Shown here: positions 6,810-20,894 of the stretch, in pieces | Layout of the letters: each line of letters opens with the position of its first letter | Numbering within the stretch: the first letter of the stretch is position 1 | Source of the DNA: Paracoccaceae bacterium | GTDB lineage: Bacteria > Pseudomonadota > Alphaproteobacteria > Rhodobacterales > Rhodobacteraceae | NCBI GenBank assembly: GCA_021741245.1 | Contig: JAIOYF010000004.1 | Location: 350,990-414,989 of the forward strand | Length of the DNA stretch: 64,000 nt | Direction: 5' to 3' | Made by a program: the position numbers and the translations under genes | The notes under the pieces: generated by a model | Told to the model about the DNA's origin: nothing | Seen by the model: the letters and a program-made list of their open reading frames with translations, nothing else | Databases searched by the model: none

Positions 6810-9800
6810 TTAGCGGCGGCGCGCAGCAAAGGGTCTTGCCGCGTTGGTCTGGCAAGCCAGCCTGTCGTTGACGGGATTGAGGTGCAGGGGAAGACTGCGG
6901 TTCAGCCCCGTATCCCGGTCCTTTTGGATGCCCGGCTTTTCATAGCGTCGTGCAGGCCTGCCATAAATGGCTGCCGTGTTTTCCTTGTGGCCCAGGCCAC
7001 CGGCCAATTGGGGGAACAGCGTCAGCAATTCGGCCAAGGCAGCAAGGTCGAGGCCGCGCAGCGCCATTGGACCGGGATAGAGGCTTTCGGTTGCGGCGCC
7101 TTCGGCAAAGACAACTTCGTGCCGGTCGAACAAGATATGCACATAAGTAACCGCCTGCGCCTTGTGGTCGATCCGCGCAACCTTGCCGCCAAGACCCGAA
7201 GCAAGGTGTTTTGCGCGGATCAACCTCCCGTTCAGCAAAAATGCATGCTGGGGCGATACGCAGATCCGACGCCTGTTGCCCAAAGCCCCCTTGCGAATGA
7301 TCACAGGCCGCAAGTTGGGATGAGCCATCAGATCGTCGGCATCAAGCTGGCGGCACCCAACCCATCGGATTGGCCGATACCCATGATCCAAGGTGCGCAC
7401 CAGATCACCGGGGCGCAGAGCGTCAACGGGAACCGGGCCGCTCACCGTCTCGATCAAAGTGCCGGGTGTAAAGCAAGGAATGCCGACCGCAGCCATCTCT
7501 TGCTTGCTGTCGATGGCTGCGGGGGAGACACCTTGCAAGACCACGCTTTCGCCGCTGGGAAAGATCAGGACCGCATCACCCGAGCCGTCGCCGACGGTGT
7601 CGCTGACCACCACATCGCGCCATGCAATAGGGTCACCGCTGGGGGTGCGCAGGTCCGAGACATCCAACTGATCAGCCGTGCGTCCTGCGCTCAACGTCAT
7701 GTCAAAGTCGGTGACCGTGTCAGCGTCGCCGCCCTGCGCCAGCACAAAGGTATCTTCGCCTGCGCCACCCGTCAGGCTGTCATTGCCATCGCCGCCCGTC
7801 AGCGTATCGCTGTCCGCGCCCCCCGACAGCACGTCGTCGCCAAGACCGCCCTCCAGCGTATCCGCGCCCGCGCCGCCAAAGGCCTGATCGTTGCCGCCGT
7901 CGCCGCGCAGCAGGTCATTGCCATCCTCACCCAGCAGGGTGTCATTGCCGTCGCCGCCATCGAGCGTGTCATCGCCCGCACCGCCAAAGATCACGTCCGA
8001 TGTGGGATGCCCGCCGCCCCAGTCGTTGCCATCATGCGCGATGATCAGGCTGGGGGTGCCGTCATCGGGGCCTTGCAGGGTGGTGTTCGACCCATCGTCG
8101 CCTGTCACCAGATGATAGGTGGTGCCGTTGAATTCGACATATTCAAAGCCGCTGATGGTATCGGTGCCATCGCGCCCGCCGACTGAGTCGGTGACGATCA
8201 GCGCGCCGCTTGGATCGTAGTCAAAGCTGTAATCGGTGACATCGCCTGAAAACACCGCCGTGTCAGAACCTGCGCCACCATCGAGACTGTCGTCGCCGAA
8301 CAGCCCCTTGACCTCGTCGTCGCCATCGCCTGCCAGAACGGTGTCATTGTTGCCGTCCGACCCGTCAAGCTGATCCCCCTGCGCGTCGATGTAGCCCGAG
8401 CCGATGCTGTCATTGCCCGAGGTGCCATCGACCACGCCGGTATACTGGATGCTCTCAATCTCGGAGAACGTCAGCGTGCCGCCGCCGCTTGCCGCGGTAA
8501 AGGTCACCACCCCTGCCTCGTTGGTGCCGCCGCCATAGGCGATGCTTTCGACATCCGCATAGTTCAGGATCAGCGTGTCGTTGTCGGTGCCTCCCTCGCC
8601 GCCCAGAACAGTATCGCCCGAAGCGCCGTAAATGACATCGGCGCCATCACCGCCCATCAGGCTGTCGCCACCCGCGCCACCCGTGAGCGTGTCGTTCCCG
8701 GCCCCGCCAAGCAGCGTATCGCTGCCATCGCCCCCAAAGAGGCTGTCGTTGCCATCGCCGCCCGTCAGGCTGTCGTCACCCGTGCCGCCATAGATCTGGT
8801 CCGCACCGGCATAGCCTGTGATCGTGTCATTGCCGTCGCCGCCATCCAGCGTGCTGGCCGCATAGCCGCCAAAAAGGGTGTCATTCCCTGCGCCGCCGTA
8901 GAAGGCCACAGCTTCCGATCCCGCGGCCATATAATCATCGCCGTCGCCGCCATAGCCCGTGTCATTGCCCGATACTGCCGAGATCGTGTCATTGCCCAAC
9001 CCGCCATACATCAGGTCGTTGCCGGCATCGCCTTGCACGATGTCATTGCCGTCGCCGCCGAAGAGCACGTCATCATTGGCGCCGCCATAGATCATATCGG
9101 CGCCACTACCGCCCGTCAGTGTGTCATTGCCTGCGTTGCCCTGCAGATTGACGGTGCTGGTGGCGATGCTGCCATCCATGCTGTCGGCCTGCGCCGTGCC
9201 GGTGATGATCTCGATCTCGCTGAACGTGCCGGACCCGCCGCCGCCGAAGGCATAGGTGCCCGCCTCAGTCCCCGTCAGGGTGACGGTGACCCCCGCGACA
9301 GTGCCGCTGAACTGCAAGAAGTCGACGTCATAGCCGGTCTCGCCGCCGACAATGCTGTCAACGCCTTCGCCGCTACCCACATCAAACACATCGGTGGCGG
9401 CACCACCGAACATGCTGTCATGGCCGCCGCCACCGTAGAAATAGTCGGTGCCCGCCCCGCCATAGAGCGCGTCTGCACCAGTGGACCCGATCAGCGTGTC
9501 GTTATAGGCCGAGCCTTGAACAGCCTCGATCCCCGAAAGTGCATCACCCGCAGCATCACCGCCCGTGCCCGTGCCCGTTGCCAGATTGACCGATACCGCC
9601 GCGCCGGACGCCGAATAATCGGCTGTGTCGAACCCCAGACCACCATCCAGAGTGTCGGCTCCGGCCCCACCAACCAGCGTATCGTCATTGTCGCCCCCGA
9701 AAAGGCTATCGGTGCCCGCACCGCCCAAAAGGCTGTCGTTGCCCGCGCCCCCATAGAGGGTGTCATTACCAAGACCGCCGTCGAGGGAATCGTTCCCGGC

Positions 9801-11603
9801 GGTGACTGTATCAGTGACCAGCACGCTGAAGTTATTGATGAAGATATCATCTGAACCCACAGCATTGGTGTAAAACGTCAGCGTGCCCGTATCGGGAACC
9901 GTTGCAGGCAGGTTTATGGTGACCGTTGTCGCGGGGCCGGTATAGGCACTTGTTTCAACAATGGTCGAAACAGGTCCGCTTGCGCCGTTCGAATAGGTGA
10001 TCGTGGCTTGGCTGCCATCGCCGTTTGGGGTGCTGATCGTGGCATAGGTGACGCCGTTGATCCGCACCTCGACCGTGGTGACACCGGCCGTTGATGCGGG
10101 CGTCGCGTCGCTCCAGGCAAGGTCAAAGGCGATCTGCGCGGCACCATTCGTGCCCGGTCCGGTTTGCAGGCCCGACACGGTGGCGTTATGGGTCAGGGTT
10201 CCTGATGTCGCGGTGGCTTCAAAAAGATAGCCGACGCCGCTGAACACGCCGCCGCCGGTCTCGCTCCACCCTGTCGTTCCTGCTGCGAAGCTGCCGTTGG
10301 TCAGGCGCTGGACCTCTCCGATATCTTCGCCGCCGGAAATCAGATCGTTCCCGTCGCCGCCAATCAAGGTATCGTTGCCGGTGCCGCCATCAAGCGAGTC
10401 GTTTCCACTGCCCCCTGTCAGCGCATCCGCGCCGCCATTGCCAAGCAAATGCACGGATGATGTATTCAGCGAAGCGTTTATGGTGTCGGCATATTCGGTG
10501 GCATCAATCGCCTCGATCCCGGCAAATGTGCCCGAGGCGTCGCCGCTGCCATTGTAATCATAGGTGCCCGCATCCGTGCCGGCAAAGGTGACGGTGACGC
10601 CATCGGTGGTCAGCCAATTGCCAAAGTCGATCCAGTCGGTATCACCACCTTCTTCGCCGCCAAAAATATAGTCCAGTTGGTGATCTTCGGTCAGCCAGAA
10701 CACATCGTTGCCGGTGCCACCGTAAAGCGAATCCGTGCCGATCCCGCCGGAAAGGTAGTCGTCGCCCGCGTCACCATAGATCTGGTCATTGTCCCCGGCC
10801 CCGATCAGGGTGTCGCTGCCGTCCCCGCCATAGACTGTGTCATCGCCGCCGTCGGTGTTCCAATCCCCAAATCTGTCGTTGCCGTCGCCGCCATAGAACA
10901 GATCATTCCCATCACCGCCAAAGGCTGTGTCATTGCCGCTTTCGCCACGGATCGTATCCATGCCGCCATCGCCATAGATCAGATCGTTGCCATATTGCGC
11001 GCGGATGTCGTCATCGCCAAAGCCGCCATAGATGACGTCAGCCAAGTTCGGGCCATAGGTGACCGTCTGTGCGCCGGTTCCGTTGATCGGCTCAAGGAAA
11101 TAGCCGTTCAGGTCCTTGAGAACCCAGTTGTGACCAACAAAGGTCGATTGCACATAGGTTTGACCGGCGCCAATTGTGGCGTAGTAAACTTGGCTCCCGG
11201 AAGCGTCGATAAAGTAAAGGTCAACTGGCCCATCGGCACTGTTGACGATGGTCAGATTGACCGCAGCCCCCGTCGAGGTGCTTGCCCAGTTTGCGATGGC
11301 CAAGAATTGACCATCGCCAAGGATTACGTCGTTTTCATTGCCGCCATAAATCGTATCTTGCCCTTGGCCACCGGTCAGATTGTCTGAACCAGCACCACCA
11401 AAGATACTGTCGTTGCCCATTTCACCCGCAACAGAGTCGTTCCCGGTGCCGCCATCGAGTGTGTCATTTCCGGTCCCACCGTAAACCAGATCAGCGCCAT
11501 CTGCCGCGTTGAGCGAGTCATTGCCGGCCCCGCCATACATCGTGTCATTGGTGAAATAGTAGGTTGCGGTGTCATTGCCGCTGGTGCCGTTATATGTGGC
11601 CAT
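6810..11603 (-). CDS. Giant RTX-type calcium-binding repeat protein with a C-terminal Hint (Hedgehog/intein) domain
   Basis: 1597-aa ORF. Many GGxGxDxL/I/F nonapeptide repeats (e.g. GGAGNDSL, GGTGNDTL) lie along the whole length. The C-terminus starts CFTPGTLIETVSGPVPVDALRPGDLV and ends HILFDRHEVVFAEGAATESL, which is Hint_2-like. GAGG sits 9 nt before the ATG. Confidence 0.9.
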   Translation of the reverse strand: MATYNGTSGNDTATYYFTNDTMYGGAGNDSLNAADGADLVYGGTGNDTLDGGTGNDSVAGEMGNDSIFGGAGSDNLTGGQGQDTIYGGNENDVILGDGQFLAIANWASTSTGAAVNLTIVNSADGPVDLYFIDASGSQVYYATIGAGQTYVQSTFVGHNWVLKDLNGYFLEPINGTGAQTVTYGPNLADVIYGGFGDDDIRAQYGNDLIYGDGGMDTIRGESGNDTAFGGDGNDLFYGGDGNDRFGDWNTDGGDDTVYGGDGSDTLIGAGDNDQIYGDAGDDYLSGGIGTDSLYGGTGNDVFWLTEDHQLDYIFGGEEGGDTDWIDFGNWLTTDGVTVTFAGTDAGTYDYNGSGDASGTFAGIEAIDATEYADTINASLNTSSVHLLGNGGADALTGGSGNDSLDGGTGNDTLIGGDGNDLISGGEDIGEVQRLTNGSFAAGTTGWSETGGGVFSGVGYLFEATATSGTLTHNATVSGLQTGPGTNGAAQIAFDLAWSDATPASTAGVTTVEVRINGVTYATISTPNGDGSQATITYSNGASGPVSTIVETSAYTGPATTVTINLPATVPDTGTLTFYTNAVGSDDIFINNFSVLVTDTVTAGNDSLDGGLGNDTLYGGAGNDSLLGGAGTDSLFGGDNDDTLVGGAGADTLDGGLGFDTADYSASGAAVSVNLATGTGTGGDAAGDALSGIEAVQGSAYNDTLIGSTGADALYGGAGTDYFYGGGGHDSMFGGAATDVFDVGSGEGVDSIVGGETGYDVDFLQFSGTVAGVTVTLTGTEAGTYAFGGGGSGTFSEIEIITGTAQADSMDGSIATSTVNLQGNAGNDTLTGGSGADMIYGGANDDVLFGGDGNDIVQGDAGNDLMYGGLGNDTISAVSGNDTGYGGDGDDYMAAGSEAVAFYGGAGNDTLFGGYAASTLDGGDGNDTITGYAGADQIYGGTGDDSLTGGDGNDSLFGGDGSDTLLGGAGNDTLTGGAGGDSLMGGDGADVIYGASGDTVLGGEGGTDNDTLILNYADVESIAYGGGTNEAGVVTFTAASGGGTLTFSEIESIQYTGVVDGTSGNDSIGSGYIDAQGDQLDGSDGNNDTVLAGDGDDEVKGLFGDDSLDGGAGSDTAVFSGDVTDYSFDYDPSGALIVTDSVGGRDGTDTISGFEYVEFNGTTYHLVTGDDGSNTTLQGPDDGTPSLIIAHDGNDWGGGHPTSDVIFGGAGDDTLDGGDGNDTLLGEDGNDLLRGDGGNDQAFGGAGADTLEGGLGDDVLSGGADSDTLTGGDGNDSLTGGAGEDTFVLAQGGDADTVTDFDMTLSAGRTADQLDVSDLRTPSGDPIAWRDVVVSDTVGDGSGDAVLIFPSGESVVLQGVSPAAIDSKQEMAAVGIPCFTPGTLIETVSGPVPVDALRPGDLVRTLDHGYRPIRWVGCRQLDADDLMAHPNLRPVIIRKGALGNRRRICVSPQHAFLLNGRLIRAKHLASGLGGKVARIDHKAQAVTYVHILFDRHEVVFAEGAATESLYPGPMALRGLDLAALAELLTLFPQLAGGLGHKENTAAIYGRPARRYEKPGIQKDRDTGLNRSLPLHLNPVNDRLACQTNAARPFAARRR
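7070..7475 (-). other. Hint_2-type autoprocessing domain (residues ~1377-1510 of the RTX protein)
   Basis: The Cys codon was verified at 7473..7475 (gca on the plus strand). The domain runs from the CF(T)PGT start to the HExV...G..ESL end motif. Confidence 0.75.
9816..10316 (-). other. Non-repeat beta-rich insertion, CBM/galactose-binding-like jelly roll (residues ~430-596)
   Basis: Starts LTNGSFAAGTTGW, an opening typical of CBM4/9-like modules. The region is Thr/Ser/Gly-rich and has no GGxGxD repeats. Confidence 0.4.
11052..11312 (-). other. VHL beta-domain-like insertion (residues ~98-184 of the RTX protein)
   Basis: Ungapped 52-residue match of residues 113-164 to human pVHL 70-121, including the GHxW(L/V)(F/L)(R/K)D signature (VGHNWVLKD against RGHLWLFRD). 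The translation was verified from the DNA at 11103..11153. Confidence 0.5.
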
Positions 11604-11616
11604 GGGTTATGCCTCA

Positions 11617-11646
11617 GCCCGAACCATGCACGCCCGAACCCTGCAC
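11617..11646. repeat. 15-nt tandem direct repeat (2 copies, 1 mismatch) in the 5' leader of the RTX gene
   Basis: gcccgaaccatgcac / gcccgaaccctgcac read directly from the sequence, 14-43 nt upstream of the start codon. Confidence 0.6.
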
Positions 11647-12132
11647 GACGGTGCGGCCATAAAATGGTCACCGCACACATCGTCCAAAAGGTTCGTCACT
11701 TTACGCATCTTTGCCCACCCAGCTTGGCGTTCCGAGTCTTGATCCGGTTCCGCCGACAGACAGCCAAGTCACCTACACCAAAACAGCTGCCCTCTCCTCG
11801 GACCGGACCATTGAAACCCGGGGCCGAATCCAACCAGCTTTGTATAAAACGGTTGGAATGACGGTCGGTTAAAGGTGAAATGAGAAATAAATTTTGGACA
11901 CTACGTCGAAATCTGCCAAAACGCCCGCCAAGGCGTGACTTTGGTGCGGTGCGGGTCGACCAAAGGCCCAATTGGGATGCAGGGCATGTCTAAATCGCTC
12001 AAATTCAGGCTGTTGCTTGTGCGGTGGCCCGTTTCAGCCGCGACCAGCCTTGCGTTTGTACAAGGGCATTGTGCAAACCGAGGTCGCTGATGTCATTGAA
12101 ACAATCATGCGGGACAGGGTGGAGTTTGACGG

Positions 12133-13017
12133 ATGCTGAAAGATCATGGCCGCTACAATTATCGCCCGATCACGGAACGGGCCGATTTCGACTGGCCCGG
12201 CGGGGCGCGGTTGGCGGTTTATCTTGGCCTGAACCTTGAACATTTTGCCTTTGGCGAAGGCCTTGGCGCAGAACTCGCCCCCGGCGGGCCGCAACCGGAT
12301 GTGCTAAACTATGCGTGGCGCGATTATGGCAATCGGGTCGGGGCATGGCGGATGCGGGATGTGTTTGACGAATTGGACCTGCCCGTCAGCGTGATCGCCA
12401 ACAGCGCCATGTATGCCTATGCGCCAGAGTTGATGGCCGCCTTTCGTGCCCGCGGGGATGAGGTGATCGGCCATGGCCGCAGCAATTCGGAACGGCAAAG
12501 CACCTTGCCCGCTGCGCAAGAAGCCGCCCTGATCCATGAGGCGACGGCTGTCTTGACCGAGGCCGAGGGGAAGGCCCCCCAAGGTTGGCTGTCCCCCTGG
12601 ATCGCGGAAAGCCTTGAGACGCCAGATCTTTTGGTCGAGGCGGGCTATGGCTACACCCTTAACTGGTGCATGGATGATCAACCGGTCTGGATGCGCACTC
12701 GGTCTGGGCCGCTTTTGTCGATCCCTTATCCGCAAGAGGTCAACGACATTCCTGCAATCGTAGCGCGCAAGGATGGGGCAGGGGCTTTTGCCGATATGAT
12801 CATCGACACGTTTGAGGAAATGCGCAGCCAATCACAGGGTCAATCCTTGGTCATGGGGATCGCACTGCATCCCTATCTTGTCGGTCAACCGCATCGCTTG
12901 CGCCACCTGCGCCGCGCGCTTAGCCATATTGCCGCGCAGCGCGATGACATCTGGCTGACACGCTGTGGCGAGATTCATCGATACTGTCGCGACAGCATTG
13001 CCGATCGGCTTGCCTAA
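12133..13017 (+). CDS. Polysaccharide deacetylase (NodB-homology, PuuE-like) family protein
   Basis: 294-aa ORF with the N-terminal pattern YNYRPI...DFDWPGGARLAVYLGLNLEHF and GHGRSN, as in divergent polysaccharide deacetylases. Confidence 0.7.
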   Translation: MLKDHGRYNYRPITERADFDWPGGARLAVYLGLNLEHFAFGEGLGAELAPGGPQPDVLNYAWRDYGNRVGAWRMRDVFDELDLPVSVIANSAMYAYAPELMAAFRARGDEVIGHGRSNSERQSTLPAAQEAALIHEATAVLTEAEGKAPQGWLSPWIAESLETPDLLVEAGYGYTLNWCMDDQPVWMRTRSGPLLSIPYPQEVNDIPAIVARKDGAGAFADMIIDTFEEMRSQSQGQSLVMGIALHPYLVGQPHRLRHLRRALSHIAAQRDDIWLTRCGEIHRYCRDSIADRLA

Positions 13018-13162: not shown

Positions 13163-14179
13163 ATGAAGCGATTTGCCTGCCCAAACTGTGGCAGTGAGGT
13201 TCACTTTGAGAACTTCGCCTGTGTCAAATGTGGTGTGCAATTTGGGGTTCATCCGCAATCGTTGCAAATGCACAGGGTGGACGCGGGAAATCAGCGGTGC
13301 CGAAACGCGCGCATTGCGGGGTGTAACTGGTTGACGCCGCTTGGCTTTTGTATTGCCTGCCAACACAATCACGTCGTCCCCGATCCAAGCATTGCCAGCA
13401 ACACCGCCCGCTGGGCTGAGATTGAATTGGCGAAACGCCAATTGATCTATGCCCTGCGGCGCTGGTCATTGCCGCATCCAACGCGGGCGCAATCGCCAGC
13501 CACGGGCCTTGCGTTTGATTTTCTGGCCGACCGTCAGAACAGCGATGGCAGCACAACGCGGGTCGAGACGGGCCATCACAACGGTTTGATCACCCTTAAT
13601 CTGGCCGAGGGCGATGATGTGCTGCGGGCTGCGCAAAAGCGTGACATGGAAGAACCCTATCGCACCGTGATTGGCCATTTGCGCCATGAGATCGGGCATT
13701 ATTACTGGGCCATGCTGGTGCGCGGCCCCGCGCTGTCCACCTTTCGCGGATTGTTTGGGGATGAACGGCGCGATTACCCGCAAGCGTTGCAGCGCCACTA
13801 TGCCCAAGGGGCCCCGGTTGGCTGGACGCAGTCCCATATCAGCGCCTATGCCTCGTCCCACCCGTGGGAGGATTTTGCCGAAACATGGGCGCATTGGATG
13901 CATATCACCGATGGGTTGGAAACCTTTCGCGCCTATGGCATCGCGCTGGATGGGCCTGCGGGCACAATCGTGCGGATTGATGAAGACCCCTATGCCACCC
14001 GCGATGTGCAGCGTATGATCGAGGCTTGGGTCACGGTCAGCGTGGCGCTCAACAGCATGAACAGAGGCATGGGGCAACCAGACCTTTACCCCTTTGTGCT
14101 TTCGGCCCGCGTTGTGGACAAATTGCGCTTTGTTCACGGGCTTATTCAGGCCGCGTCGGGAAAATTGCCTATTTTATAG
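13163..14179 (+). CDS. Zinc-ribbon plus zincin-like metallopeptidase family protein
   Basis: N-terminal CPNCG...CVKCG zinc ribbon and an HEIGHYYW (HExxH) motif mid-protein. Confidence 0.7.
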   Translation: MKRFACPNCGSEVHFENFACVKCGVQFGVHPQSLQMHRVDAGNQRCRNARIAGCNWLTPLGFCIACQHNHVVPDPSIASNTARWAEIELAKRQLIYALRRWSLPHPTRAQSPATGLAFDFLADRQNSDGSTTRVETGHHNGLITLNLAEGDDVLRAAQKRDMEEPYRTVIGHLRHEIGHYYWAMLVRGPALSTFRGLFGDERRDYPQALQRHYAQGAPVGWTQSHISAYASSHPWEDFAETWAHWMHITDGLETFRAYGIALDGPAGTIVRIDEDPYATRDVQRMIEAWVTVSVALNSMNRGMGQPDLYPFVLSARVVDKLRFVHGLIQAASGKLPIL

Positions 14180-14294
14180 GCGCTTGAGCCGGATCACGGG
14201 GGCATGTGTCGCAAAATCGGGCCAAAGTGCATAAAGCACTAGAGGAACACCGGGGCTTGTGAAAAAAAAGCAGTCCGTCTTGAAAGAACCGATC

Positions 14295-17200
14295 ATGTCA
14301 ATCCTTGCCAGCATCCACCACCTGACCCATTACAAATATGACCGGCCGGTCACGCTTGGCCCGCAGGTGATCCGCCTGCGCCCGGCACCGCACAGCCGCA
14401 CAAGGGTGGTGTCACATTCCCTCAAGGTCTCGCCCGCGAACCATTTCGTGAACTATCAGCAAGACCCGTATGGCAACTGGATGGCGCGCTATGTTTTTCC
14501 CGATCCGGTGACAGAATTCCGGATCGAGGTGGATCTGACGGCTGACATGACCGTCTATAACCCCTTTGACTTCTTTGTGGAGGCAAGTGCCGAAACATGG
14601 CCCTTTGACTACCCCGCAGACATCGCCGATGATCTGGTGATCTACCGCAAATGCGACCTGCCGGGCCCCCTTTTGCAAGGCTTTCTTGATCGTGTGCCGC
14701 GTGACCCGGTGCGCACAACAGACTTCATCGTGCGGCTGAATGCGCAGCTGGCCCAAGAGATCGGCTATGTGATCCGTATGGAACCGGGTGTGCAGACGCC
14801 CGAGGAAACCTTGGGCATCGGCAAAGGTTCGTGCCGCGATACAAGTTGGCTTTTGGTGCAGGCCCTGCGGCATCTGGGGTTTGCGGCGCGGTTCGTGTCG
14901 GGCTATCTGATCCAGCTAAAGCCCGATCTGGTGGCGATTGACGGCCCTGCAGGAACCTCGCAGGATTTCACCGATCTGCATGCATGGTGCGAAGTCTATC
15001 TTCCGGGGGCAGGCTGGATCGGGTTGGACCCGACCAGTGGTCTGCTGACCGGGGAAAGCCATATCCCGCTGTCGGCCACGCCGCACTATTCGAATGCGGC
15101 GCCAATCTCGGGCATGGCAAGCTATGCCGAGGTGACCTTTGACTTTGACATGACGGTGCAACGCGTGGCCGAACATCCGCGCATCACCAAGCCGTTTTCC
15201 GAAGAGGCATGGGCCGATCTGAACGCCCTTGGCCACAAGGTCGATGCGGCCTTGGCGGCGGGCGATGTGCGCCTGACGATGGGGGGGGAGCCGACCTTTG
15301 TCTCGATCGACGATTTTGAGGCGGGTGAGTGGAACACTGATGCCGTTGGCCCCACCAAACGCATTTTTGCCGATGCGCTGATCCGCCGACTGCAGGCGCG
15401 CTTTGCGCCGGGGGGATTTTTGCACTATGGGCAGGGCAAATGGTATCCGGGCGAAACCCTGCCACGCTGGACGTTCAGCCTCTATTGGCGACGCGATGGC
15501 AAGCCGATCTGGCACGACACCGCCCTGATCGCGCCCGAGGTGACGGGGGCCACCGTTACGCCCGCTCAGGCCAGCGCCCTGCTGGAAACCATCGCAGAAA
15601 CCTTGGGCCTGCCGGCCGACAATGTGACACCCGCATTCGAGGACCCGGCGGAATGGATCGTCAAGGAAGGCAATCTGCCCGAAAACGTCACGCCTGAAAA
15701 TTCGCAACTCAAAGACCCCGAGGAGCGTAACCGGATCGCCCGCGTCTTTGCGCGGGGGCTGACCGAACCTTCGGGCTTTGTGCTGCCAGTCCAGCGCTGG
15801 CAGGCCAAGGCGGCGCAAACCTGGGTGTCAGAGAAATGGGCGCTGCGGCGCGGGCATCTGTTCCTTGTGCCGGGGGACAGCCCCGTGGGGTATCGTCTGC
15901 CGCTGGGATCGCTGCCCTTTGTCAAGCCTGCGGATTATCCGCATGTGCACCCGTCAGACCCGTTTGATGACCGCGGCGCCTTGCCGGATTTTGCGCCCGA
16001 AACCCCCGATCAGCACAGGCAAGAGCGCGCCACCTTTACCGCATCCGAGGCCACGCAAGATGTGCGTGAACAGGCGATCTCGGATGTGGCGGGTACGGTG
16101 CGCACCGCGATTTCGGTGGAGCCGCGCGACGGGCGGCTTTGTGTCTTCATGCCGCCCGTGGAAAAGGTCGAGGATTATCTGGAACTGGTCGCCGCAGCCG
16201 AAGCCGCTGCCAAACGCCATGGCCTGCCGGTCCATATCGAAGGCTATGGTCCGCCAAATGACCCCCGCTTGAATGTGATCCGCGTGGCCCCCGATCCGGG
16301 GGTGATCGAGGTCAATATTCACCCCGCCCACACCTGGGGCGAGGTGACGGCCACCACCGAGGCCGTCTATGAAGAGGCGCGACAATTGCGTCTTGGGGCC
16401 GACAAGTTCATGATCGACGGCAAGCACACCGGAACCGGTGGCGGCAATCATGTGGTGGTGGGCGGTGTCACGCCCGCCGACAGCCCGTTTTTGCGCCGCC
16501 CCGATCTGCTGGCCAGCCTGATCCTCTATTGGCAGCGTCACCCCAGCCTGTCTTACCTGTTTTCGGGCCTGTTCATCGGCCCCACCTCGCAGGCGCCGCG
16601 CATTGATGAAGCGCGGATGGACAGTCTTTATGAACTTGAGATTGCACTGTCGCAAATCCCGGTGCCGGGGCAGGGTGCGGCGCCTGCGCCGTGGCTTGTG
16701 GACCGGCTGTTGCGCAATCTTTTGGTCGATGTGACCGGCAATACCCATCGGGCCGAGATCTGCATTGACAAGCTCTATTCCCCCGATGGCCCCACAGGCC
16801 GCTTGGGTCTGGTGGAGTTTCGCGGGTTCGAGATGCCGCCCAACCCGCGCATGAGCCTTGCCCAGCAGCTTTTGATCCGGGCAATCATTGCGCGCATGTG
16901 GGCCAGCCCGATCAAGGGCAATCTGACCCGTTGGGGCACGACGCTGGCGGATCGCTTTATGCTGCCGCATTTCGTCTGGACCGATTTTCTGGATGTCTTG
17001 GCCGATCTGCGCGAACACGGCTTTGATCTGAACCCGGATTGGTTCAAGGCGCAGGCCGAATTCCGTTTTCCCTTCTGCGGGGAAACCACGGTCGAGGGCG
17101 TCACGCTGGAACTGCGCCAAGCCTTGGAGCCATGGCATGTGCTGGGCGAAACCGGGGCGATTGGTGGCACGGTGCGCTATACCGACAGCTCGGTTGAGCG

Positions 17201-17612
17201 GTTGCAGGCCAAGCTGACCTGTGCCGATCCGGGCCGCTATACCGTCACCTGCAATCAGCGCCAATTGCCGATGCAGGCGGCAGGGGCAGGCGTGTCGGTC
17301 GCGGGGGTGCGCTACAAGGCGTGGCAACCGCCCCTTGCGTTGCACCCGGTTTTGCCAGTGAACGCGCCGCTGACCTTTGACATCTATGACACATGGAACG
17401 GGCGGGCCTTGGGGGGATGCACCTATCACGTCAAGCACCCCGGCGGGCGCAGCTATGATACCTTTCCGGTCAACAGCAATGAGGCAGAGGCGCGGCGGCT
17501 TGCCCGTTTTGAAGCGCGCGGTCATACTGCGGGTTCCTATGAGCCGGTTCCCGAAACCCCGCACCCCGAGTTCCCGATGACCCTAGACCTGCGCCGCGCG
17601 CCCCGGCAGTGA
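14295..17612 (+). CDS. Large transglutaminase-family protein (N-terminal transglutaminase core plus DUF2126-like C-terminal region)
   Basis: Cys-His-Asp transglutaminase motifs are present ([13 protein letters not shown]; [23 protein letters not shown]). The ATG at 14295 is preferred over the upstream GTG at 14259. Confidence 0.8.
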
Positions 17613-20005
17613 TGCCCCAAAGAATGCAATCCAAATGTGTCGATACCCAGCTTTTCGCCCGGTATCGGCCTCTTCCGGGTGTGCCCGACGAATTGGCAGA
17701 TGCCAAGGGCGCGATGCGGGCTGTCTGGACGGGCCTGATCGCGCATATGTCCGGCCTGACCGAGGCCGAGATGGGCGATGCTTTCGCGCGCGGTGATCAG
17801 CATTTGGCGGATACGGGCGTATTCTTTCGCAAGTATGGCACCAATGCCGATGTGGGCCGCGATTGGCCGTTCAGCCCCGTGCCGATCATTCTGCCCGAGG
17901 CCGAGTGGCGCGGGATCGAGGCGGGCCTGATCCAGCGCGCCGATTTGCTGGAACAGGTGGTGGCCGATCTTTACGGTGACAACCGTCTTGTGGCCAATGG
18001 CCATTTGCCCGCCAGCCTGATTGCCCAAAACCCCGAATGGCTGCGCCCCATGATCGGGGTGCGGCCACGCTCGGGGCATTTCTTGCACTTTGTGGCGATC
18101 GAGATTGGCCGTGGCCCCGATGGCCGCTGGTGGGTCTTGTCTGACCGCACCGATGCCCCCTCGGGCGCGGGCTTTGCGCTTGAGAACCGGGTGGCGGCCT
18201 CGCGCGTGTTTCCGGACGTTTTCCGCACGGCCAATGTGCACCGTCTGGCCGGGTTTTTCCGATCGTTTCGCGACGCACTTGAAAAGCAGCGCGGGGATCT
18301 TGCCTCACGCGTGGGGATATTGACGCCGGGGCCCCTGACCGACACCTATTACGAACAGGCCTATATCGCCCGCTATCTGGGCATGACCTTGCTGGAGGGC
18401 GAGGATCTTTGTGTGGAAAATGGCCAGTTGCGGGTGCGCACGGTCGAAGGGTTGGCCCCCGTCGATGTGCTGTGGCGGCGGATGGATGGCATCTGGGCTG
18501 ATCCGCTGGAATTGCGCGAGGACAGCCAGCTTGGCACGCCGGGGCTGATGTCGGCGGTGCGCCAAGGCCATGTCAGCATGGTCAATGCCTTGGGCGTGGG
18601 GGTGTTGGAAACGCAGGCCTTGATGGCGTTCTTGCCCAAGATTTCACAAGTTCTGACGAGAAGGCCACTGTTGTTGCCGAACGTGGCCACATGGTGGTGC
18701 GGTCAAGCCAGTGAGTTGGCCCATGTGCGCGCCCATGCGAACCGCATGATGATTGGCCCGGCCATGGCAACGCGGATGCCCTTTGATTCGGGCGCGCCGC
18801 ATGCGGTGGGGGGGCAGATGCGCGGGGCGGATCAGACTGACCTGAACGCATGGCTGACCCAGAATGCCGCTGGATTGGTGGGCAAGGAATTGGTGACCCT
18901 GTCGACGACGCCTGTCTATGAAAACGGCGCCTTGGTGCCGCGACCGATGACATTGCGCGCCTTCTTGGCCCGCACCCCGAATGGGTGGCAGGTGATGCCC
19001 GGCGGCTTTGCCCGCATCGGGGCCAGTGCCGATACCTCCGCCATTTCGATGCGCAACGGTGGCTCGGTTGCTGATGTCTGGATCGTGGGCGACAAGCCCG
19101 TTGAGGCCGTGACCATGCTGGTGGCGCAAAGCGCGCCTTTTGTGCGGGCAAAGGCCGGACCCTTGCCCAGCCGTGCGGCCGACAACCTGTTCTGGCTTGG
19201 CCGTTATGTGGAGCGGACCGAAGGCCTGTTGCGCCTTGTGCGCGCCTATAACAGCCGTCTGGATGAGGCCGCGACCGCCCCGCTTTTGGCCACGATCCAT
19301 GCCCGCCTGAACGCCTATGGTGTCGACGTGACCGAAGCCTTTCCCAAGGGTGTCACCAGCACGCTGGCCTCGGCGGTTCACAGTGCCAGCCAGATCCGCG
19401 ACCGCTTTAGCGTGGATGGTTGGGCAGCGCTGAAGGATATGGAAAAATCAATGGCCCGCATCGCCAAGACGACCGAGGTGGGCAGCGACGCGGCCTCGGT
19501 CATGAGTGTGATGTTGCGCAAGATCGCGGGCTTTTCGGGCCTTGTGCATGAAAACATGTATCGCGCGGCGGGCTGGCAGTTCCTGACCATCGGGCGGTCG
19601 ATGGAGCGCGCGGCGATGATGACCGAGCTTTTGGCCGAGACGACCGGCCCGCGTGCTGCGGCGGGAGGGCTTGATCTGACGATCGAAGTGGGGGACAGCA
19701 TCATGGTTCACCGCCAGCGCTATGCCGTGTTTACCAGTCGCGAAAGCGTTATTGACCTGTTGGCGCTGGATGAAAGCAACCCCCGCTCGGTCCGGTTTCA
19801 TCTGGATGTGATTGCCCGCAGGACAGACGACCTTGCTCCCCTGCGCCCCCCCGGTCACATGAAGGGGTTTGTCGCCGCCGTTGCAGCCCTGCAGGACGAA
19901 ATGGCGGCACATTCGGTCTATAGCCTTGATCAAAAGGCGCTTTTGGCAACGCATGGGCAGATCTTGAACCTGTCAACGGCACTGCATGCCACATTCATGC
20001 ACTAG
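17612..20005 (+). CDS. Circularly permuted type-2 ATP-grasp protein fused to an alpha-E domain
   Basis: ~797-aa ORF. The family was recognised from its overall pattern (YYEQAYIARYLG, LVEGEDL-like LLEGEDL, C-terminal FWLGRYVERTE typical of alpha-E). Its ATG overlaps the upstream stop (TGATG). Confidence 0.75.
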   Translation: MPQRMQSKCVDTQLFARYRPLPGVPDELADAKGAMRAVWTGLIAHMSGLTEAEMGDAFARGDQHLADTGVFFRKYGTNADVGRDWPFSPVPIILPEAEWRGIEAGLIQRADLLEQVVADLYGDNRLVANGHLPASLIAQNPEWLRPMIGVRPRSGHFLHFVAIEIGRGPDGRWWVLSDRTDAPSGAGFALENRVAASRVFPDVFRTANVHRLAGFFRSFRDALEKQRGDLASRVGILTPGPLTDTYYEQAYIARYLGMTLLEGEDLCVENGQLRVRTVEGLAPVDVLWRRMDGIWADPLELREDSQLGTPGLMSAVRQGHVSMVNALGVGVLETQALMAFLPKISQVLTRRPLLLPNVATWWCGQASELAHVRAHANRMMIGPAMATRMPFDSGAPHAVGGQMRGADQTDLNAWLTQNAAGLVGKELVTLSTTPVYENGALVPRPMTLRAFLARTPNGWQVMPGGFARIGASADTSAISMRNGGSVADVWIVGDKPVEAVTMLVAQSAPFVRAKAGPLPSRAADNLFWLGRYVERTEGLLRLVRAYNSRLDEAATAPLLATIHARLNAYGVDVTEAFPKGVTSTLASAVHSASQIRDRFSVDGWAALKDMEKSMARIAKTTEVGSDAASVMSVMLRKIAGFSGLVHENMYRAAGWQFLTIGRSMERAAMMTELLAETTGPRAAAGGLDLTIEVGDSIMVHRQRYAVFTSRESVIDLLALDESNPRSVRFHLDVIARRTDDLAPLRPPGHMKGFVAAVAALQDEMAAHSVYSLDQKALLATHGQILNLSTALHATFMH

Positions 20006-20015
20006 GGGCGGCGCG

Positions 20016-20894
20016 GTGATTTTCGATATCAAACTACAAATAGCCTATGAATATGCCAACCCGGCGGTGGGGGGGCGGCATGTCGTTTGCGTGATGCCTT
20101 TGGGCCTGACAGCAGGTCAAAGCGTTCAATCCGCCCAGCTTACGATCGACCCCATTCCGCAAGAGCGGTTGGACAGGGTGGATTTCTTCGGAAACGCCGT
20201 GACAGAGTTCAGCTTTCGTGGTCCGCACGACAGCGTGTCACTCACCATGCGGGCACGGGTGATGCGTGACGGTCTGGTGCCATCAGTTGCAAGTGCGGTG
20301 CCGCTGGATGCCTTGGCGCGCGAATTGGCACAGTGTCGGGATGTGGGGCCGAATGCGCCGCTGCATTTCTTGGCCCCCTCATCGCGCGTGCCGATTGATC
20401 CCGCCATGACCGCTTTTGCCACCGCGCTTGTGCGCCCGGGTTTGACCGTGGCCGAGGTGGTGATGGCCGTGGGCAGCGGCTTGTTCCGTCATATGCGGTT
20501 TGACCCCACCGCGACAAAGGTCGACACCCCTGCGACAGAGGCTTTTGCCAAGGGGCGGGGGGTTTGTCAGGACTTCTCCCATATCATGATCGCCTGCTTG
20601 CGCGGCATCGGCGTTCCGGCGGGCTATGTCAGCGGCTATCTGCGCACCCTGCCTCCGCCCGGAAAACCAAGGCTTGAAGGGGCGGATGCCATGCATGCTT
20701 GGGTGCGCGCATGGTGCGGCCAAGCGACAGGGTGGGTTGAGTTTGATCCCACCAACAACTGCTTTGCCGGCGGGGATCATATCGTTGTCGCCCATGGTCG
20801 CGACTATTCTGATGTGGCCCCGATCAAGGGCACCATGCGCATCGCGGGCGGTCAGAAAAGCCATCAAGCAGTGGATGTCATTCCACTAAACTGA
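20016..20894 (+). CDS. Transglutaminase family protein (Bact_transglu_N plus transglutaminase core)
   Basis: Motifs GRGVCQDFSHIMI and AMHAWVRAW...WVEFDPTN. The GTG at 20016 lies 10 nt after the preceding stop. Confidence 0.8.
   Translation: MIFDIKLQIAYEYANPAVGGRHVVCVMPLGLTAGQSVQSAQLTIDPIPQERLDRVDFFGNAVTEFSFRGPHDSVSLTMRARVMRDGLVPSVASAVPLDALARELAQCRDVGPNAPLHFLAPSSRVPIDPAMTAFATALVRPGLTVAEVVMAVGSGLFRHMRFDPTATKVDTPATEAFAKGRGVCQDFSHIMIACLRGIGVPAGYVSGYLRTLPPPGKPRLEGADAMHAWVRAWCGQATGWVEFDPTNNCFAGGDHIVVAHGRDYSDVAPIKGTMRIAGGQKSHQAVDVIPLN

Follow-up and report, generated by a model that had tools for sequence, protein, structure and literature searches.

The question raised by this locus was whether a non-repeat segment in a large bacterial RTX protein is a true relative of the beta domain of human pVHL, and whether such a segment could recognise a ligand as pVHL recognises hydroxyproline. 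pVHL is among the best-studied protein-recognition modules. It reads the hydroxyproline of HIF and is the handle of most PROTAC (proteolysis-targeting chimera) drugs, and discussions of its fold usually treat it as a trait of eukaryotes. The segment lies in a 64-kb stretch of DNA from a Paracoccaceae bacterium (G+C 60%), hereafter called the window, and all coordinates are window positions. Our analysis indicates that residues ~98-188 of a 1597-residue protein encoded there are almost certainly related by true descent to the pVHL beta domain and share its fold.

Location of the VHL-like domain in an RTX protein

The gene, the domain and the repeat blocks adjoining it are located as follows.

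6810..11603, minus strand: whole gene, RTX / Hint_2 protein with the VHL-like domain, 1597 residues (open reading frame and Pfam)
11346..11591, minus strand: N-terminal RTX nonapeptide block, residues ~5-86, adjoining the domain upstream (GGxGxD masking and Pfam RTX)
11040..11312, minus strand: very probable VHL beta-domain homologue, residues 98-188 (sequence, profile and model comparisons)
11046-11300, minus strand: envelope of the VHL-like domain given by the family hidden Markov model (HMM), residues 102-186
11112..11267, minus strand: core of the domain, residues 113-164, gapless against pVHL 70-121 (Pfam, hmmsearch against the PDB, hhalign)
10695..11039, minus strand: second RTX block, residues 189-303, adjoining the domain downstream (Pfam and masking)

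The repeats are of the tandem GGxGxD nonapeptide calcium-binding type and were detected by Pfam HemolysinCabind in 29 stretches (384 bits). When these nonapeptides were masked, residues ~95-188 were left as an insert without repeats, immediately bordered by an RTX block on either side. The first-pass annotation of this DNA had placed a VHL-like module at 11052-11312, which corresponds to residues 98-184. The core, residues 113-164, reads AAVNLTIVNSADGPVDLYFIDASGSQVYYATIGAGQTYVQSTFVGHNWVLKD. The domain is present as a single copy, no second VHL-like copy being found in the 64-kb window. The exact window protein is already on record, and its precomputed Pfam families are RTX and Hint_2 only; the VHL-like insert is therefore unannotated.

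Homology to the pVHL beta domain

The direct resemblance of the window copy to pVHL is marginal when its sequence is taken by itself. With the isolated 107-residue segment as query, the sole Pfam match was VHL (PF01847), with an E value of 0.076 and 13.5 bits, the gathering cut-off of 21 bits being an operational threshold and no biological feature. The closest relative of the domain (P0007) reached 20.3 bits against the same family. Pairwise BLASTP against pVHL 54-213 gave an E value of 0.002 across 33 residues. The register of the Pfam match was that of the first-pass annotation, which had counted 10 identities over 52 gapless positions of the human sequence. Counting by hand gave the same number at the same positions (pVHL N78, V84, G93, Y98, T100, G104, G114, H115, W117 and D121), and the human sequence that had been used agrees with the PDB chains.

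To find relatives, the 91-residue domain was compared by phmmer with 1.84 billion representative proteins (clusters at 50% identity). This retrieved 896 representative proteins at E<=1e-3, 140 of them at E<=1e-10. The domain is thus less unusual than the first-pass annotation had supposed, the family containing at least 896 representative clusters. We sorted the best 150 of the 896 matches into 55 RTX and 95 non-RTX proteins. The RTX relatives carry one copy each, 40-60% identical over the whole domain, whereas most of the non-RTX relatives have 2-12 copies in tandem, and the N-termini of some resemble signal peptides. Pfam VHL was matched at E<=1e-4 by 77 of the 80 non-RTX relatives scanned, and five of them scanned singly scored 39-122 bits. 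Among the RTX-type relatives, 10 of 43 reached E<=1e-3 with Pfam VHL, and the lowest E value was 1.3e-8.

Profiles built from these relatives were compared with pVHL. The RTX-only profile (A1) found human pVHL in the PDB at an E value of ~0.025 and aligned to it by hhalign with a probability of 90.5% (E 1.3e-6), in the same register. A profile of 45 non-RTX domains (A5) found pVHL in the PDB at E 1e-12, and its only other matches were two designed Ig-like proteins at E about 1e-3. The HMM of all domains scored 54.5 bits against pVHL 54-160. The alignment of pVHL to the scanned relatives was confined to pVHL residues ~43-155, mostly 62-140. None of the relatives scanned aligned to the pVHL alpha domain, and the profiles are therefore free of canonical eukaryotic VHL orthologues. 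Word-indexed homologue searches returned no match with the domain alone, two with the RTX-type profile and two with the non-RTX profile.

We then looked at the predicted fold. The beta domain of pVHL is a seven-stranded sandwich, residues 63-154 (PMC3688787). Without an alignment, AlphaFold2 gave a poor model of the window domain, with a predicted local distance difference test score (pLDDT) of 63, and this model was set aside. With a 54-sequence alignment of the subfamily, the pLDDT was 93 and the predicted template modelling score 0.84, and the model contained a short helix and seven strands. When this second model was compared with the PDB by Foldseek, the top 50 matches were all pVHL chains (E 1.3e-5 to 1.4e-4, probability 1.00), with query template modelling scores of 0.62-0.73. 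The window domain is thus modelled as a seven-stranded beta sandwich that can be superposed on the one in pVHL.

A generic small beta sandwich could resemble pVHL by chance, and the sub-threshold Pfam score of the window copy, its pairwise identity to pVHL of only 19% and the poor single-sequence model would fit such a case. However, the window domain is linked to pVHL by a transitive chain of highly significant matches, four methods (Pfam, hmmsearch against the PDB, hhalign and BLASTP) give an identical register, and Foldseek placed nothing except pVHL in its top 50. We regard this explanation as extremely improbable, and chance similarity to pVHL as effectively excluded. The VHL beta-domain-like module that the first-pass annotation had proposed inside a bacterial RTX protein is borne out by both profile and structure matches: the VHL match becomes significant once homologues are used, although Pfam VHL alone falls short, and the top 50 PDB matches of the alignment-based model are all pVHL.

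Conservation of the hydroxyproline-contacting residues

In pVHL, the hydroxyproline site is made of Trp88, Tyr98, His110, Ser111, His115 and Trp117; Ser111 and His115 are hydrogen-bonded by the hydroxyl of the hydroxyproline, and Tyr98 is bonded by its carbonyl (PMC9528729). The equivalent residues of the window domain are F131, Y141, S153, T154, H158 and W160. This agrees with the first-pass annotation, in which Y141, H158 and W160 had been read as identical to pVHL and F131 and T154 as conservative. Conservation was counted in 55 RTX-type and 289 other domains (344 in total), and positions were ranked by column entropy across 81 match columns.

11241..11243, minus strand: N121, equivalent to pVHL N78; N in 54/55 RTX-type and 283/289 other domains; rank 1 of 81
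11211..11213, minus strand: F131, equivalent to W88; W in 41/55 and 249/289, F in 0/55 and 4/289; the W88 column ranks 5
11181..11183, minus strand: Y141, equivalent to Y98; Y in 33/55 and F in 9/55, Y in 193/289; rank 17
11142..11144, minus strand: T154, equivalent to S111; T in 52/55, T in 240/289 and S in 32/289; rank 3
11130..11132, minus strand: H158, equivalent to H115; H in 41/55 and 247/289; rank 6
11124..11126, minus strand: W160, equivalent to W117, a pocket and core residue; W in 49/55 and 254/289; rank 2

The equivalent of G93 ranks 4 of 81. By these ranks, the pocket residues on which the first-pass annotation had relied are not free to vary. In contrast, V, I, L and F replace one another at the core positions F76 and F119. 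Four of the five pocket residues are present in the window copy; in the signature formed by N78, W88, S/T111, H115 and W117, its N121, T154, H158 and W160 are identical or consensus and F131 occupies the W88 position.

We also looked at whether the five pocket residues are kept together. All five were found in 226 of the 344 domains versus 150 expected under independence, and two or fewer in 43 versus 8 expected. Within the RTX subfamily, all five were kept in 35 domains (20 expected) and two or fewer in 12 of the 55 (2 expected). Keeping or losing the pocket residues as a set is what a functional site predicts, and we consider this pattern suggestive only.

Two further traits distinguish the RTX subfamily. 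Asn159 (window 11127-11129), between the pocket His and Trp, gives an HNW motif found in 54 of the 55 copies; this position is mostly Pro in the other bacterial copies and Leu in pVHL. Moreover, residues 98-108 form an N-terminal GQW...AS extension that is conserved and modelled as a short helix.

Distribution and architectures of the relatives

To see where such domains occur, we scanned one genome per species with an 8-sequence alignment as profile. In total, 22 related loci were found, 19 of them in Rhodobacterales (Marivita, Roseovarius, Cypionkella, Marivivens, Tritonibacter, Planktotalea, Rubellimicrobium and others). One locus belongs to Planctomycetia and encodes a non-RTX protein (Pfam VHL, 29.3 bits). 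At each of the 22 loci there is a single copy, and the proteins range from 279 to more than 2800 residues in length. Outside Rhodobacterales, the RTX-embedded subfamily is almost absent. Among the RTX-type relatives, 26 of 43 end in Hint_2, and some also contain DUF642 or Laminin_G_3. When plasmids were searched with the domain by tblastn, the matches were two small hypothetical proteins of cyanobacteria, with uninformative neighbours.

In non-RTX relatives, the domain is joined to TIR_2, RicinB lectin (RicinB_lectin_2), PD40/DPPIV beta-propellers, cystatin/SQAPI, PASTA, OmpA and MACPF. Judged from these sequences, joining with many unrelated modules would be the behaviour of a portable recognition module.

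Other arrangements were seen among the relatives. In Cypionkella psychrotolerans (GCA_001294535.1; locus L024 9705-11981, and L025), an insertion sequence element (rve integrase genes) interrupts the RTX - VHL-like - RTX - Hint_2 homologue of the window gene, and what remains is a 145-residue fragment with the VHL-like domain and a separate 276-residue RTX and Hint_2 fragment. Very large non-RTX proteins of 900-2000 residues (P0001-P0006, P0037, P0038, P0055, P0090) contain VHL beta domains in tandem from residue 1, roughly twelve at most. The TIR_2 fusions include proteins P0024, P0044 and others. A VHL domain is also found in the accessory protein of retron type X (PMC7736814), and this link together with the TIR fusions hints that some bacterial copies are intracellular, possibly in defence systems.

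Possible function of the domain

As a whole, the results are best explained if the VHL-like domain is a target-recognition module with a hydroxyproline-type pocket, set between the RTX blocks of the large repeat protein; we hold the chances for and against this explanation to be about equal. In such a protein, the RTX blocks would be a rigid calcium-dependent scaffold. F131, Y141 and W160 would wall a surface pocket for a small hydroxylated ring, and T154 and H158, placed like S111 and H115 of pVHL, would hold the hydroxyl. Because of the analogy with pVHL, the leading ligand candidate would be hydroxyproline (or proline) in an extended peptide of an extracellular partner, for which an algal wall protein rich in hydroxyproline or a protein resembling collagen may be proposed. 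From the residues conserved, the pocket probably binds some ligand. That this ligand is hydroxyproline or proline is possible by analogy and distinctly doubtful; hydroxyproline binding by the window domain is plausible on sequence grounds. The RTX architecture suggests that the protein is exported, with a role in adhesion or targeting. Extended to the whole bacterial VHL beta-domain family, the RTX-embedded Rhodobacterales subfamily included, the idea that these domains are genuine hydroxyproline readers seems to us quite unlikely. If it were true, hydroxyproline recognition by the VHL pocket would be an ancient prokaryote-wide principle and not an invention of eukaryotic oxygen sensing, and in roseobacter-type bacteria the domain would anchor secreted RTX/Hint proteins on algal or animal hosts by way of the host's hydroxyproline-rich glycoproteins.

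Several points weigh against a hydroxyproline-type recognition module. We found no functional or structural study of a bacterial VHL beta domain in the literature, and the Foldseek and profile searches detected no bacterial VHL-like structure in the PDB. No prolyl hydroxylase or 2-oxoglutarate oxygenase was present among the 40 window genes scanned, and none recurred beside the 22 related loci. Type I secretion genes (ATP-binding cassette (ABC) exporter, membrane fusion protein) were found neither in the 64-kb window nor recurring beside the relatives; secretion may use an unlinked system. The correlated loss of pocket residues could stem from shared ancestry or from a general decay of some copies. 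Across the family, the pVHL peptide-groove residues F91, R107 and H110 are not conserved. The family consensus at the W88 position is W (84%), and F131 of the window copy is rare but conservative. Finally, part of the pocket conservation may come from folding rather than binding, because W117 is also a core residue, sitting in the aromatic tetrahedron F76/W117/F119/F136 of pVHL (PMC3688787), and the N78 position, the most conserved column, is structural.

These last features would suit a VHL-fold homologue that is a mere structural spacer or folding unit between RTX blocks, in which the "pocket" residues only stabilise the sandwich. The core role of W117, the structural nature of the top-ranked column, the rare Trp-to-Phe change in the window copy and the lack of a linked hydroxylase among the window genes and related loci all point that way, as do the 12 of 55 RTX-type copies that persist in the same architecture with two or fewer pocket residues. 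Yet the polar ligand-contacting His and Ser/Thr are conserved at 84% and 95% while core F76 and F119 drift, retention is bimodal (all or few) as expected of a functional site, and the domain is joined to effector or binding domains as unrelated as TIR_2, RicinB, PD40, cystatin and MACPF. We consider a pure spacer unlikely. Aromatic walls with a His and a Thr are also typical of carbohydrate sites, and the pocket might be functional with another ligand: a sugar or other hydroxylated small molecule on the surface of algae or bacteria, or a peptide motif without modification. In addition to this general resemblance, relatives are fused to the lectin-like modules RicinB_lectin_2, Laminin_G_3 and DUF642, Thr replaces Ser in ~85% of the bacterial copies, and both the unconserved groove residues and the lack of a linked hydroxylase would agree with a ligand other than hydroxyproline. 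On the other hand, no positive sign of a sugar ligand was obtained, and the conserved residues are exactly those that contact the hydroxyproline ring and hydroxyl in pVHL (PMC9528729). This makes another ligand rather unlikely in our view, and a recognition module with a hydroxyproline-type pocket remains the explanation that we prefer.

Other parts of the protein and genomic neighbourhood

Apart from the VHL-like domain and the RTX repeats, one region of the protein was assigned by Pfam.

7071..7478, minus strand: C-terminal Hint_2 (bacterial intein-like) domain, residues 1376-1511 (Pfam)

Hint_2 was matched with 153.9 bits (cut-off 28.4; E 5e-45). Cys1377, read in the sequence GIPCFTPGT, stands at the start of this domain and suggests autoprocessing as in bacterial intein-like domains. 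Beyond Hint_2, a C-terminal tail of 86 residues has no Pfam match, and the other non-RTX segments of the 1597-residue protein have none either. Among these segments, a second non-RTX insert of ~175 residues (residues 424-600, window 9804-10334, minus strand) is beta-rich and begins GEVQRLTNGSFAAGTTGWSETGGG; Pfam matched nothing in it, also when this insert was the sole query. Since some RTX-type relatives have DUF642 or Laminin_G_3 modules, the insert might be a sandwich of the carbohydrate-binding kind. A short spacer motif also occurs three times between RTX blocks, at residues ~335-380 (window ~10464-10601, minus strand), ~768-803 and ~1030-1056. Examples are VTVTFAGTDAGTYDYNGSGDASGTFAGIEAIDAT, VTVTLTGTEAGTYAFGGGGSGTFSEIEIITGT and VVTFTAASGGGTLTFSEIESIQYTG, and Pfam matched none of them.

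The neighbours of the RTX gene are glnE and genes for a YbaK-type editing protein, a DUF2852 protein, an arginyl-transferase, a 294-residue protein without Pfam match and a Peptidase_Mx protein, and a cluster of DUF2126, circularly permuted ATP-grasp and transglutaminase genes. Elsewhere, the window contains housekeeping and transport genes. Between the RTX gene and the divergent gene of the 294-residue protein (12133-13017), a gap of 529 bp (11604-12132) has no gene passing the codon-composition filter. Further on, a run of five genes on the plus strand (13163-20894) includes a Peptidase_Mx zinc peptidase, a 1117-residue transglutaminase plus DUF2126 "amidoligase", a circularly permuted ATP-grasp plus Alpha-E protein, and a second transglutaminase-like protein. 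By its appearance, this run is a conserved cluster for the modification or ligation of peptides, with no relation to the RTX gene.

We clustered the open reading frames flanking the 22 related loci, and no recurrent partner emerged from them. Only parts of ABC transporters, a peptidase M20 and an AsnC regulator occurred more than once, each at 2-4 of the 22 loci. tRNA and Rfam scans of the window were empty. When window positions 1-25000 were compared with plasmids by megablast, only the edd gene was matched, at ~79% identity (Ketogulonicigenium).

Comparison with known systems

Human pVHL is the hydroxyproline reader of the CRL2-VHL ubiquitin ligase. The window domain is very probably homologous to its beta domain, with the same gapless register and, in the model, the same seven-stranded sandwich. 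They share N78, Y98, S111 (as Thr), H115 and W117, and the window domain has Phe for W88. In contrast to pVHL, the window domain lacks the alpha domain, the BC box and the elongin-binding part, and it sits between RTX repeats in a bacterial protein that is presumably extracellular. Residues F91, R107 and H110, which belong to the HIF groove of pVHL, are not conserved in the bacterial family, and the window gene has no ubiquitin system context around it. A role as ubiquitin-ligase adaptor was rejected, there being no alpha domain or BC box and RTX repeats directly on both sides. A canonical VHL of eukaryotic type gained by transfer was also rejected, on the lack of an alpha domain and the position of the domain within a broad bacterial radiation.

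Closer to the window domain are the prokaryotic members of PF01847, which include the retron type X accessory protein (PMC7736814), Litorilituus EMK97_00595 (PMC9002001) and hypothetical proteins with tandem copies. These were retrieved with the window domain by phmmer, with E values down to 1e-23 for small proteins. Like the window domain, they consist of the beta domain only and carry the conserved N / W / T / H-x-W signature. They usually contain 2-12 tandem copies and no RTX repeats, whereas the window type is a single copy within RTX beta-rolls, has the HNW motif and the GQW-x-AS N-terminal extension, and mostly stays below the Pfam threshold. Among Rhodobacteraceae, RTX and Hint domains are reported to be over-represented in fast responders (PMC12487129). 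The RTX and Hint_2 proteins of this family have the same overall architecture as the window protein, but the VHL-like insert is absent from the architecture described for them.

Bacterial VHL beta domains are already known, being in Pfam and mentioned in the literature. What is new here is a divergent member of the family and the RTX - VHL-like - RTX ... Hint_2 architecture, of which we found no description in the literature. The conservation of the hydroxyproline-contacting residues across the family, and their retention together, are a useful addition. If binding proves false, the domain would simply add to the binding or spacer modules of an RTX protein that is ordinary for Rhodobacterales. 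If it proves true, hydroxyproline-based recognition would take part in contacts of bacteria with hosts or algae, and bacteria would offer stable VHL-like scaffolds.

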